From assembly GCA_000165425.1 (NCBI GenBank), contig CT868058.1, positions 186,001 to 212,273 on the forward strand: a DNA stretch of 26,273 nucleotides. Reading direction: 5' to 3'. Numbering within the stretch: the stretch's first letter is position 1; each line of letters starts with the position of its first letter. The notes under the pieces were generated by a model. That model worked only from the letters and a program-made list of their open reading frames with translations. It ran no database searches and was not told the origin of the DNA. The translations under genes and the position numbers were made by a program. Of the stretch, positions 4,860-13,507 are shown one piece after another. The DNA is from Paramecium tetraurelia (lineage: Eukaryota).

Positions 4860-5935
4860 ATGAAAATTAACATTATTTTAAATCTAATCAAGTTAAAAAA
4901 AGAACGAGGATAAATATAAAAAATATTAGACAACCTCCATCCTGAAGAACAAGATTTTGCATCCAATAAGTAAGAGGAAATCCTTTATTTCAATATTTAC
5001 ATTTTGACCATCCTTCCTATATTGAGGATACTGGAGATTATTAAACATTCTCTCATTGAAAAGTTCATTACTAAAATACCAGCATTCTATCCCTTCTCTA
5101 AATAGTAGGTCGAAGAGGAATCCCTGCATATCTTCAACGACTTTCTCGAATCTCTTTCATAGAAAGGGTAGATGAATGTTAATAAATATATCCACAATGT
5201 CATCAAAAAGTAGATCACTTATCAAGAAGCCTTGAAGTTAGCCACAACTGCTAAAACTCATCTAGCATAGTCGAGTGATTTCCAAAGACAATCTTCAATT
5301 CAATTGAAACATATCAATGGGAATGTGAAGTCAAATCTAAAATGTCTGACTTTTATGAGAATACGGCTGATGATCATTTGTAAAGGAATGCTACCGAAAA
5401 CAGAACATTTGATTTTCTGTACATCTTTATAGGAGACATACACAATCATAAATTGCTTGAGGATCCAGAATACATTTAGAACCAAATCTAGCATATGAAT
5501 CCTGAATATTGGAAAATCAAATACACACCAGTTTTGAAGAAGATCAGCGAATGCATCGACGAAGATTTGGAGGATTTCATTAAGCAAGAGGATACTCAAA
5601 AGAAATAGGAACAATAATAATCAATATACGAGTATTGTTGTATCCTTAGATCAATTTGCTAATATGCGGTAGATCTATTAAAAAGTGTGAATGTGGCTAC
5701 GCTGTATTACTATTCTGTCATCTATTCATTTCAGAAGTTTGTGAACCGTTTGGATGGAGTTGAAGATCTGCAGAGAATATTGTATTTAACTTAGAATCAT
5801 ATTAAGGAGAGGAAGTACAAGTAACATGTGAGAGACTTTTTGAGAGGACGTTCAAATTTCATAAGGGAGATGCGAAATAAGTCTTTAGTTGATAAGGGAG
5901 AAAGAGAGTTGATTAAAATAATTTTAAATTTCTGA
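4860..5935 (+). CDS. Hypothetical protein (~358 aa if joined) with an apparent 1-nt frame break near 5280; possible pseudogene or assembly error
   Basis: Frame A is open 4860-5498 and frame B is open 5279-5935. No canonical 20-33 nt intron of suitable length links them. The start codon is uncertain. Confidence 0.6.
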
Positions 5936-5951
5936 TTTTTTTATTTATTTT

Positions 5952-6636
5952 ATGTTAAAACCACATAAAGTGCTGCTGCATGAGTTTGCTGAACTGATAT
6001 TGAATCAGAGAGTAGAGTAGAAACCCTCAAGTTTGAGACACTCGAATGTGTTGAATCTGTGGCAGATCAAGGGGATATGGGTGAATGAGAATTCGGATTT
6101 AAGATTGCAGATGAATTTCTACATTCAGAAATGGAATACTCGGATTCTAGTTGAAGTTTGGGTCTTAGAAGTAATCATAACAAACGAGTAATAGAACAAC
6201 ACTAAAAAGATAATTTAAGATTAGCGATCAGGCATTTAAGAAAACACAACGTCTAGCTCTTTTACAATCTAGGAGTATTCTAGGAATATTGGCCAATCTC
6301 CCACTTTCTCAAGAAATCCCCTCCTTCAACAAGCATATGAAGATAGCATACAATATTGAGAACTCTTCAATTCCACAACATTTTCAAACCATCAATTTTC
6401 CAGTGATCCCTTGTCCCAGCAAAAAGGTCACTTATTTGTACATCCAAGTCCATTACTAGAAGGAAATCGTATTCTCTCCACAACCAAAACTAGCCCAGAA
6501 ACCAATCACCTAAAGAGAAGATGCTGAAATGAACACTTTGCATCAGATTCAGAAGAGCTTCAGAAACAGAACCAAAGCTTCTTCTTAGATTGCTGAGACT
6601 CTTGAATACTTTAATTTAATAAATTAAACACTTTGA
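5952..6636 (+). CDS. Atg13-like HORMA-domain protein (~220 aa, essentially HORMA only)
   Basis: FAELILNQRV..LNL..ILVEVWVLEV..FKIS..RLALLQSRSILGILANLP..KIAYNI..FQTINF..LYIQVHY aligns by eye, in order, with Atg13 N-terminal HORMA motifs. One 22-nt intron 6188-6209. Confidence 0.65.
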
Positions 6637-6649
6637 AATGAATTATTAC

Positions 6650-6670
6650 TATATATATATATATATATAT
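6650..6670. repeat. (TA)n microsatellite, ~10 units
   Basis: Uninterrupted tatata.. run in the 48-nt spacer between TGA 6636 and ATG 6685. Confidence 0.95.
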
Positions 6671-6684
6671 TTATTAATAACTGA

Positions 6685-8715
6685 ATGATCATCGATTCAA
6701 CTTTGGTAGTCAAGATCACTTTCTATGCAAGCATGGTGATTTTCATTTCCCTAACATTCACAAGCATTCTCTTTGGTTAACCTGAAAAGCTGACAAGAGG
6801 ATTTGATCCAGATGGTAAAACACATATTAATATCTAGGCATTGCATGTGGTGCTGATTTTGGATCCAAAGAATACCCCTACATTTATTTCAGTAATCCCA
6901 CCCCTTCTACTTAGTATTAATCAGTTTGTGTGAAATCATGTCCCAAACCCGATCGCTAGAATACAAGTACATATAAAATTCAAATCATTAGTGCCCACAC
7001 AACTGGAATGTGTACCAAACTCTATTGTTCAGTAATGTAAGGCTAAATTCTCCATTGATAATCCAGACGACTAGTTTTTAATATATGATACTTTCCTTTA
7101 CAAAGGCAATATCTGTATGCCTAGAAATTTAGCCTATTATGAGGCGATCAAAGATATAGCAACTCCTCCATCTAGGTTAACAAATACAAGTGACGTGTTT
7201 TATAATAAATGGATGCTCCTCATCTATATTATCCTTGCTGGTATTGCTTCAAAATTACTGCTTGTCTAATTAAAGGCCAATACCTAATATAGTGTCTGGG
7301 GTTTGACCTTGGGATTATTTGTATTTGTGGGAAGTCTGGGAATTATTTTTATTTCCTAAGTAAGAGAAGCTATCAAAAACTCATTAGAAACTAATTCAAT
7401 ATCTTCCTTTTAGGTTGATGAAGAGTATATTTTGAAAATGACAAATGTACCAGATCCAATCAATTTAATATTTTTATCCTTTGTTTTTGTAATACTGACA
7501 TTTTATGGAGCTTATTTCCTATATAACAATTATGATAGAATCAAAAATCTGTCGGAATTATTTGAATAAGTGGAAAAGTTTATGGCTGAACACGAATACC
7601 TTCAAGAATTCTCATATCCTATGATTATAGTACTTAATTTCTTTCTATTTTTAACCATCTACACGGTTCTGTATTAATTCATATATTCACAGTAGATCAT
7701 TAAGAGCTTGTTTTGTGATTGATTTCCAATAGATTGGACCCTTTGAAAAGATCTAAGGAGGAGTTCTCTATTATTTCCAGTTCTTGATATATATCTTTTT
7801 CTTTTGGGGAGTCCAAGTAATCTTCGGATTGAATAACTACATCATATCATCATCCTTAGTATAATGGATTCAAGTGGGTCACGTACATAATCAGGAGTAA
7901 GAACTTCAATACAATCACAATTAATCTTCCCTTGTTTTAACCAGATACTTTTTGCAAGAAGCCTTCTACAACATAGGTAAGATAACTTTTGCCTCACTTC
8001 TACTACTGATTTCCCCAGTCAAGTTTGTGTGTGATGCTTTGAAGGATTGGGCAGTCAGGAGAAAAAATGAGAAGTTTAGAAATTTCCTTGTAAAATATTG
8101 CTGTTTGCCCTTCATTGAGATATACAATAAAACCAGACAAATCGAGGAAGTTGTTTATGTGGAATTAGCAATAAATAGAAAAAAAAATTTATCCATCAAT
8201 TTGTGCTTGAAATTCATTGATGAATATTTGGAACTGAAATAGGAGGATTCGAGCACTGCAGAAATCTTCGAATAATTAAGTAATTTTTCATTAATACAGA
8301 ATAGGAAATACCGTTGATTCATTCTTGTTGATAACCAAAATATTTATTGCCTTGTTTTGTGCAATAATCTGTAAGGTCATTTTGGGTTTCAAATACTTTT
8401 CAAAAGAGATGTATGAGACCAATCTCACTTGTTTGGTTGCTGCAATGATAGGATATTATGTTGCTTCATTGTACTTCTAAACCTATTCGATTGTTCTTTA
8501 AGGTTTTGGCTACATTTATTTGAGAACAATGAATATATGTAAAAAGAATAATGAAAATTTTGAGAAGAATCAATAGAAGAAGAAGGACAATGCGTTTGAT
8601 ACATTTAAGAATCTTTTTAAAGTATCTAATTATACTATTTTAGGAATTCTCTGATATCATGATTCAATATGAGAATAAACTGAAAGAATAGAAAAATGAG
8701 GAACTTCCAATTTGA
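6685..8715 (+). CDS. Choline transporter-like (CTL/SLC44 family) multi-pass membrane protein
   Basis: An N-terminal TM is followed by GQPEKLTRGFDPDG|IACG..YPYIYF..VCVKSCP..ICMP (CTL extracellular loop pattern) and many hydrophobic helices. Introns 6815-6837, 6967-6991, 7671-7695, 8280-8304, 8622-8643. Confidence 0.85.
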
Positions 8716-11760: not shown

Positions 11761-13507
11761 TCATTTTATTAGAGCAGAATACATGACATTTAGATCATAA
11801 AGCTTATTTTCCAATTTTTGAGTTGATAATGAAATTATTTCGTTTTCTAAATTCTTTGGTTCAAATTCATTTTATATAAACTTCTAAGGATGAAGCGAGA
11901 AGTACATGTTAATTTATAATGTATAAATCTGTCTTAAAGTAGCTTCGTCAATGATTTACCTTTTTTTGATTGACTTGGTGATTTCATCTATAAATTAAAT
12001 GTACATTTTGTTAAAGATTTCCTGTGATCTTTTATTTTTCTAATTGGTTTGAACTAATTCAGCTATAATTTGTATCTAGGTATGATTAAATGAAATTATT
12101 TACAAGTGGATTATTCTAATCAGCTGCTTTTAATTTCACAAATTATGGTAATAATTTTTCATTATAAAATTAGTTCATTTATTCTTGATTGGTTTTAAAA
12201 TAGTTTAACACTTTGTAATATTTGGCTTAATCAGTTTAAAACATTTTGATGTCATTCTCCTTGAAATTGATTTCGCCTGGAGGAAGCTAAAAGTTTAAAT
12301 GATTATCAATACATTGCTCTGCAAGATTTACAAATAAAAATTATACTCATTTAACAAATACTTAGTTGATGTTAAACTAAACAATATTTACATAGATTGA
12401 TTGATTTAAAGTTTCTCTTGTAATGTAAAGAATAGTCGAGTAGTATTATTATTAGAAAATGAGATTATTCTTTGAACATAATCAAAGTAGTCCTTCATTT
12501 CATCAATCTTATTGATCTACTATTCAACCTTTTAATATTTGGTTTGAAAGCTTTCACTATCACTCATATGAGTAGATGCCATACTCAAATTTTCATTGGT
12601 CACAACCTGAAAAGGTGTGTCTTTTGATAAAAATAAGAATAAATCATCCCATCTGATTCTCATTTCTGGATCTACCTTTAGCATTTTTGTTAATAAAGTT
12701 TTGTAAGACTCATTTATTTGAACTTCTTGAGGAAATTTAAGTGGTTCTGTTGTTATCTTCTTATGCAATCTATTTGGATGATTGTCAATAAATGGAACAA
12801 CTCCATACAGCATTTCATAAAAGATGACCCCCAAAGACCAAATATCAACTTTAGATGAATATTTTGAACTAACCATCATCTCTGGAGCCTGATACAAGAG
12901 TGTGCCAACAACAGTTTAATCTACGGCTAAATCCATTTCCTCTATTATCTTCGCAAATCCAAAATCTGCTATTTTAGCTACACCCTTAGAGAATAGTATA
13001 TTTTCTGGCTTCAAATCTCGATGAAGAGTCTTCAAACTGTATAATGTTTTATAGCCCTCCGCTATTTGACAAAAGATTTGATAGGCACGTTCTTGGTGCA
13101 ATTGTCTCTTTTGTTATCGATTCAATAATTTATTTAGGTTTCCCTCCTCGCAAAGCTCTAATATTAAGTTTGTCGATTGATCACATACAACTACATCTAA
13201 CATTCTAATTACTATTTAAATTTGATACTTCACAACATGTTCGCTGTCTATATTGCAGTGAATCTCACGTTCTCTCTTATATAACGTCTTCATTTTTTCT
13301 ATTGTTTAACCCGGAGAATTAGCAGGCAAACTTTGGAGAACCTTTATGGCCACTTTCTCTTATGCTTTTCCTTTCACAAAACCTTCAAAAACTTAGGCAA
13401 AAGCGCCCTATTTTCAAAATATTCATTACTGCTCCTATCATTTTTTTCTTGTATAAAATATACTTTTCTCCTATTGGTTTTGTATCTAAATTTTAAGAAC
13501 TAAGCAT
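11761..13507 (-). CDS. Ser/Thr protein kinase, ULK/Atg1-like ciliate family (~548 aa) with helical C-terminal domain
   Basis: IGA|GAFAQVFEG, VAIK, LHRDLKPENILF, KIADFGFAK, GTLLYQAPE, YSSKVDIWSLGVIFYEMLYG. Introns 13408-13429, 13205-13228, 12287-12312, 12076-12103; TGA 11761-11763. The kinase call is firm; the subfamily is less certain. Confidence 0.9.

Follow-up and report, generated by a model that had tools for sequence, protein, structure and literature searches.

A likely divergent, compact ATG13-like gene of Paramecium tetraurelia and its candidate partners in autophagy initiation

A short gene of Paramecium tetraurelia likely encodes a divergent ATG13, in which a conserved tail of two helices would follow a predicted HORMA domain (residues ~5-162) almost at once, the long disordered region being absent. 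The gene is found on the plus strand at positions 5952-6636 of the window, that is, of the whole 26,273-nt stretch of DNA analysed here (G000:C75:186001-212273; NCBI table 6, very short introns). We file it as ATG13-like rather than canonical ATG13, given that its fold is a prediction and that it lacks the long disordered tail. The same genome likely holds, judging from profile matches, ATG101 and ATG11/FIP200-type genes, and from this ciliates probably keep a compact initiation complex of ATG13, ATG101 and an ATG11/FIP200-type protein.

The published picture is a different one. According to the accessible part of PMC5244887, a PSI-BLAST survey (E 0.001) of five ciliates, including P. tetraurelia, reported Atg13, Atg101, Atg17, Atg11, FIP200, Atg9 and a typical Atg1 as absent, found no ciliate kinase with an Atg1 C-terminal domain and concluded that ciliates start autophagy without the Atg1 complex. 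The statement in an earlier, sequence-only reading of this DNA that surveys had not detected Atg13 in ciliates is thereby confirmed, and ATG13 identity of the present gene would contradict that survey. A later review also describes ATG13 and ATG17 as not found in many protists (PMC8161075, in part), and none of the ciliates examined is reported to have RAPTOR, hence TORC1 (PMC12467227, in part). No PTET or TTHE labels occur in the text of Fig. S1F, a HORMA tree supplementary to PMC6601020, and the available portions of PMC10104450, PMC12153319, PMC5579357 and PMC12482441 contain nothing on ciliate ATG13. Among the titles searched, none reports Atg13 or ATG101 in Paramecium, ATG101 in Tetrahymena, or the gene identifier.

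Gene model, transcription and relatives

The gene is composed of two exons, read with code 6 from ATG 5952 to TGA 6636. The ATG and the TGA lie in different frames, so one intron of 3n+1 length is needed to connect them, and among introns of 18-45 nt there are six GT-AG candidates that leave the reading frame open. The most likely intron, as judged from sequence comparison, is the 22-nt GTA...AAG at 6188-6209, giving a 220-aa protein that agrees in length and junction with the P. octaurelia model P0008, which is 97% identical to the public P. tetraurelia model P0003. The latter (GSPATT00037090001, UniProt A0CBY9) represents the same gene and differs by a 37-nt intron and a length of 215 aa. 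We prefer the better-supported 22-nt intron since the TAG acceptor of the 37-nt one is GAG in the duplicate copy (L002 on C78), in which the AAG acceptor is kept. Exon 1 (5952-6187, residues 1-79) would thus carry the predicted first helix with Arg20 and the predicted strands with Glu68-x-Trp70, while exon 2 (6210-6636, residues 79-220 and the TGA stop) is supported by its frame and by RNA-seq. As no spliced joint was listed for the gene in three RNA-seq runs of 58-nt reads, the junction itself is deduced. Models P0004 and P0009 begin further upstream, in the frame of exon 2, a start that was ruled out by an in-frame TGA in the window copy. The sequence-only reading had described a 220-aa code-6 gene absent from the track of open reading frames: the gene, its coordinates and its length stand, whereas the absence is explained by code 6 together with an intron, and the gene is in fact annotated.

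The ATG13-like gene is real and transcribed. In the three runs, which were oligo-dT-based, reads cover most of it at low depth (at most ~12 per bin), with a gap at 6110-6314 in one run; exon 1 has a depth of 0-7 per bin, partly from reads of the duplicate copy. First mates map to the minus strand, which in most stranded libraries means plus-strand RNA. Since the depth drops to 0-0.15 at 5905-5945 and to 0 at 6643-6683, we consider the gene to form its own transcript; with the stop at 6636, the RNA-free 6643-6683 and the next gene from 6685, there is no space for a longer tail. This next gene (6685-8317, plus strand) is choline-transporter-like (PF04515) and begins 48 nt past the ATG13-like stop. 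On the other side, the stop of the upstream gene lies 16 nt before ATG 5952, and the region of the junction at 5933-5952 is 38/40 identical between the copies.

Either exon matches two copies in the genome, the second being the genome-duplication twin already mentioned. They differ in 87 columns (55 at third, 22 at first and 10 at second codon positions), and both appear to be expressed, since some exon-1 reads carry the letters of the duplicate. An 80-nt run at 6142-6221 of the plus strand, including the whole 22-nt intron, is identical in both copies (post hoc permutation p 0.003), whereas the intron of the neighbouring gene has diverged. This identity might stem from regulated splicing or from gene conversion. 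Mis-spliced models from three other species translate through the intron with the same residues. The second intron of the ATG101-like gene pair described below is also near-identical (24/26 nt), so intron conservation is not unique to the ATG13-like gene.

Named orthologues come from P. octaurelia, P. pentaurelia, P. primaurelia and P. sonneborni, and the 197-aa orthologue of P. bursaria (P0012) aligns end to end at 27% identity (pairwise E 1e-17). A search of 1.84 billion representatives (6 matches), further searches with 8 near-length matches and 1 longer match, and metagenome contigs named no relative outside Paramecium. The one longer match is a model fused with the downstream gene, and the P. 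sonneborni model P0010 carries such a fusion with the choline-transporter-like gene, probably an annotation error; match P0013 proved to be a repeat artefact and match P0011 a 53-aa fragment. As the protein is short in two distant Paramecium species, down to the 197 aa of P. bursaria, the short length is real and old within the genus.

Evidence for ATG13 identity and for a HORMA domain

The gene had been presented as perhaps overlooked, which by databases it is not: A0CBY9 already bears the UniRef name 'Autophagy-related protein 13 N-terminal domain-containing protein'. We infer from the protein's lack of a Pfam match that this name was machine-assigned, perhaps with a similar language model, and so may not be independent of the evidence that follows. 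In the ESM Atlas, the top match of P0003 was an ATG13 cluster (score 0.91, 198/256 features in common, PF10033 on 63% of its members), 25 of the 30 matches belonged to the ATG13 family set, and the generic HORMA family ranked 29th with 0.76; shuffled proteins used as a control reach a score of 0.9 in 4-10 of 100 cases. The P. bursaria protein found no ATG13 neighbour there, its best match (0.79) being unrelated. Thus, ATG13 is nearest by language-model features for one of the two proteins.

Alignment-based searches gave no such signal. The comparison with the Pfam ATG13, ATG101 and HORMA profiles that the sequence-only reading had proposed came back empty, with no PF10033 or PF02301 match for the exons and, at E up to 10 with HMMER filters on, no PF10033, PF07855 or PF02301 match for P0003, P0008, P0005 and P0012. 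A search of PDB sequences with the ATG13-like protein returned no match, and PADLOC returned nothing. All six Paramecium motifs quoted earlier are present and in the order given. Of the human motifs set beside them, alpha-C alone could be checked, by way of a mutagenesis primer in the available part of PMC6070014, and no sequence search gave a significant match to ATG13. Aligned by eye to residues 100-112, the human alpha-C segment derived from that primer is identical at 4/13 positions in P. tetraurelia and 5/13 in P. bursaria; in the same by-eye alignment, the human ATG101-binding hot spots I131, R133, V134 and Y138 are identical at 1/4 and 0/4, respectively.

An Arg and a Glu are invariant in HORMA domains, as stated in the accessible part of PMC4657174. 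Going by sequence motif and by secondary-structure prediction, R20 (alpha-A) and E68 (core strand) fit this pair; P. bursaria has retained the two residues, and one further fragment has the Glu. AlphaFold2 models built from the single sequence and from a 7-row alignment have mean pLDDT of 42.3 and 44.1, respectively, which is too poor for use, and four fold searches with them listed no HORMA, an uninformative outcome that is no evidence against a HORMA fold. Both models give the order helix-strands-helix-strands, but the stretch that leads from the first helix to the main strands is free of helices in both, which speaks against ATG13. The proposed check by structure prediction and fold search has yielded the element order, but at pLDDT 42-44 it could not demonstrate the HORMA fold. 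The long helix predicted at residues 85-107 (6226-6294, plus strand) in these low-confidence models, which partly matches the human segment, is likely the HORMA alpha-C and would form the ATG101-facing surface. As for the claim of a 'minimised autophagy-initiation subunit', its ATG13-like part is supported by the ESM Atlas, the UniRef name, the Arg/Glu pair and the partner genes, while its HORMA part stays at the level of a prediction.

Two other readings must be weighed against this evidence. The protein might have no relation to HORMA and be an alpha/beta protein specific to Paramecium, its ATG13 label being an artefact shared by language models. Such a view would agree with the blank Pfam and PDB sequence searches and with the failure of P. 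bursaria to repeat the Atlas signal, but we regard it as improbable, given that the 10 best family-assigned Atlas matches all share one family or clan, with 198 features in common, and that, even at 27% identity, the Arg, Glu-x-Trp and an R-S-[IL]-L...P segment matching the human alpha-C segment are among the conserved residues. Highly improbable, in our opinion, is another kind of HORMA protein (p31comet, Rev7, Mad2 or Hop1-like) that would have a role in checkpoint, repair or meiosis and use the tail as a closure motif. A length of 197-220 aa does suit single-domain HORMA proteins, every HORMA family has the Arg/Glu pair, and the ATG101-binding hot spots are poorly kept; yet PF02301 is not matched, the Atlas HORMA family stands behind the ATG13 clusters, and an ATG101-like gene implies an ATG13 partner, for which an insensitive genome search found no other candidate. 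A divergent ATG13 is the reading that we retain as likely.

The C-terminal tail and candidate partner genes

Some 55 aa were said to follow the domain, and this agrees with a tail at residues 166-220 (6469-6633, plus strand), comprising a linker and then a pair of helices predicted to be amphipathic. The accompanying label of a 'HORMA-only' protein is probably wrong, since this tail is conserved: its similarity to the P. bursaria tail lies above that of all 5000 shuffles, and identity amounts to 11/29 aligned residues in 186-220 versus 45/137 in 1-165. The amphipathic segments are present in both species, and both low-confidence models place helices at 186-197 and 202-219, each with a Phe (F196 and F213) kept in P. 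bursaria. In human ATG13, ULK1 is bound by tandem MIMs that span 462-517 and include F470 and F512, as described in the available part of PMC12187132; the Paramecium tail resembles this region in its length and its layout. It is tempting to suppose that the two tail helices are a MIM pair docking a tandem-MIT kinase, a proposal that we hold as slightly short of an even call.

ATG101 is a known partner of ATG13 (PMC4657174, in part), and a genome search with its profile (PF07855) gave two loci, on C225 (L003:1438-2015, plus strand) and C236 (L004, minus strand). The exons of the first match profile positions 4-39 and then 54-150 (21.5 + 18.5 bits) and those of the second 4-36 and then 54-150 (18.9 + 23.1 bits), each exon alone falling below the cut-off of 26.5 bits. 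Both genes have two inferred introns and, by inferred placement, LLQFFK where the WF finger is expected. Profile comparison of the ATG13-like protein with ATG101 exon 2 revealed no similarity, and exact look-up of the unspliced ATG101 frames found 0/7. The presence of ATG101-like genes makes it more probable that an ATG13 exists, and the ATG13-like gene is the sole candidate found.

The ATG11/ATG17-type profile (PF04108) gave three matches, two of which (L009 and L010) were discarded as unrelated, being small coiled-coil genes of signal-peptide-like character. The third (L011 on C51, ~145200-148400, plus strand) covers profile positions 20-180 and then 234-355 in consecutive frames with a best E of 4.9e-8, to be read with the facts that PF04108 is also matched in 8/14 control genomes and that each exon alone is below the Pfam cut-off. 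This gene consists of the PF04108 region, a long coiled-coil-like stretch and a short C-terminal domain; a further copy lies near 417100 on C413. No match to the ATG11 claw (PF10377) was found in it, and for this reason we name it ATG11/ATG17-like.

Overall, three of the nine families searched in the genome were matched (PF07855, PF04108 and PF21127). The PF21127 (ATG1-like MIT2) match (L005:1477-2228, minus strand; E 1.25) is in a small gene that is not a kinase gene, its frame ends in a Cys-rich tail, and it is probably noise. In this insensitive search, PF10033, PF02301, PF12063, PF04109, PF10377 and PF14538, among them the families of ATG9, the Atg1 MIT1 domain, ATG11 and RAPTOR, gave no candidates; such blanks do not show absence, since even PF02301 matched nowhere. 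In the window itself, ~11780-13413 of the minus strand encodes a Ser/Thr kinase (PF00069) followed by a helical-looking C-terminal region of ~250 aa. The scanned part of this kinase has no MIT family match, and it is possibly one of many tandem-MIT kinase candidates.

The tail might also serve an ATG13 orthologue in another way. If the link to Atg1 had been lost, the ATG13-ATG101 HORMA dimer would act alone, with the tail packed against the domain or bound to some other partner. We take this view, which corresponds to the minimal subunit of the sequence-only reading, to be possible, if rather doubtful. It draws on the statement in the accessible part of PMC5244887 that no ciliate kinase has the Atg1 C-terminal domain, on a Phe spacing unlike the human one (17 versus 42 residues) and on a tail profile that matches no ATG13 chain in the PDB. 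However, the tail is conserved as much as the domain, has two amphipathic helices and equals the human MIM region 462-517 in length (55 aa), and the same survey, as far as its accessible part goes, also missed ATG101, which is detectable here.

A putative compact complex and its comparison with known systems

Returning to a divergent ATG13 with a candidate MIM pair, we can outline how such a protein might work. By analogy with other eukaryotes, its HORMA domain would probably pair with ATG101 via alpha-C. A kinase of the tandem-MIT type might then dock via the tail, a step that we put forward tentatively, not quite reaching even likelihood. The missing disordered region corresponds to the TORC1-phosphorylated switch and to the cross-linker to the scaffold (Atg17/FIP200). 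Losing it would accord with the absence of RAPTOR/TORC1 reported for ciliates and might leave a complex that is stably assembled or switched by another input, although this last step is on the unlikely side. That a regulator was lost along with its substrate region makes a coherent, if hypothetical, account. The scenario as a whole is an Atg1/ULK-type complex rebuilt without TORC1 from a HORMA plus MIM-pair ATG13 with the phospho-switch region deleted, ATG101, an ATG11/FIP200-type scaffold and an unrecognised tandem-MIT kinase; we present it as speculative and, in all its parts together, unlikely.

If the scenario were true, a natural minimal complex would initiate both the autophagy of starvation and the elimination of nuclei, and would do so lacking the disordered, phase-separating region to which a central role is ascribed. 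A tail-less ATG13 in a TORC1-less lineage would be a natural experiment on whether the disordered region serves initiation or just TORC1 control. With three candidate subunits in one ciliate genome, the claim that no Atg1 complex exists becomes directly testable by RNAi. The surprise is lowered by the ATG13 name already present in the database and by later work: Zhang, Hama and Mizushima reportedly carried out an HMM-based survey in 2021, and its tables, like those of Lai et al., may already list a ciliate ATG13 or ATG101.

With Mad2, Rev7, HORMAD and p31comet (PF02301 and kin), the protein shares a similar size and the invariant Arg/Glu, but PF02301 is not matched and the Atlas score is far below that of ATG13. 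Like ATG101 (PF07855), it would be a small HORMA protein of the one complex; unlike it, the protein has no PF07855 match, such matches being carried by the separate genes on C225 and C236. From ATG13 itself (PF10033; human, yeast), it differs in having no long disordered region, with ~20 linker residues here against some 250 disordered residues in human ATG13. The mapped FIP200/Atg17 sites and TOR phosphosites are without counterpart, the ATG101 hot spots appear to have diverged, and the protein lies below Pfam detection. What it has in common with ATG13 is an N-terminal domain, likely of the HORMA type, that has the invariant Arg/Glu, co-occurrence with ATG101-like and ATG11/ATG17-like genes, and a C-terminal end formed by a ~55-aa segment, predicted to be helical and comparable to the human MIM region.
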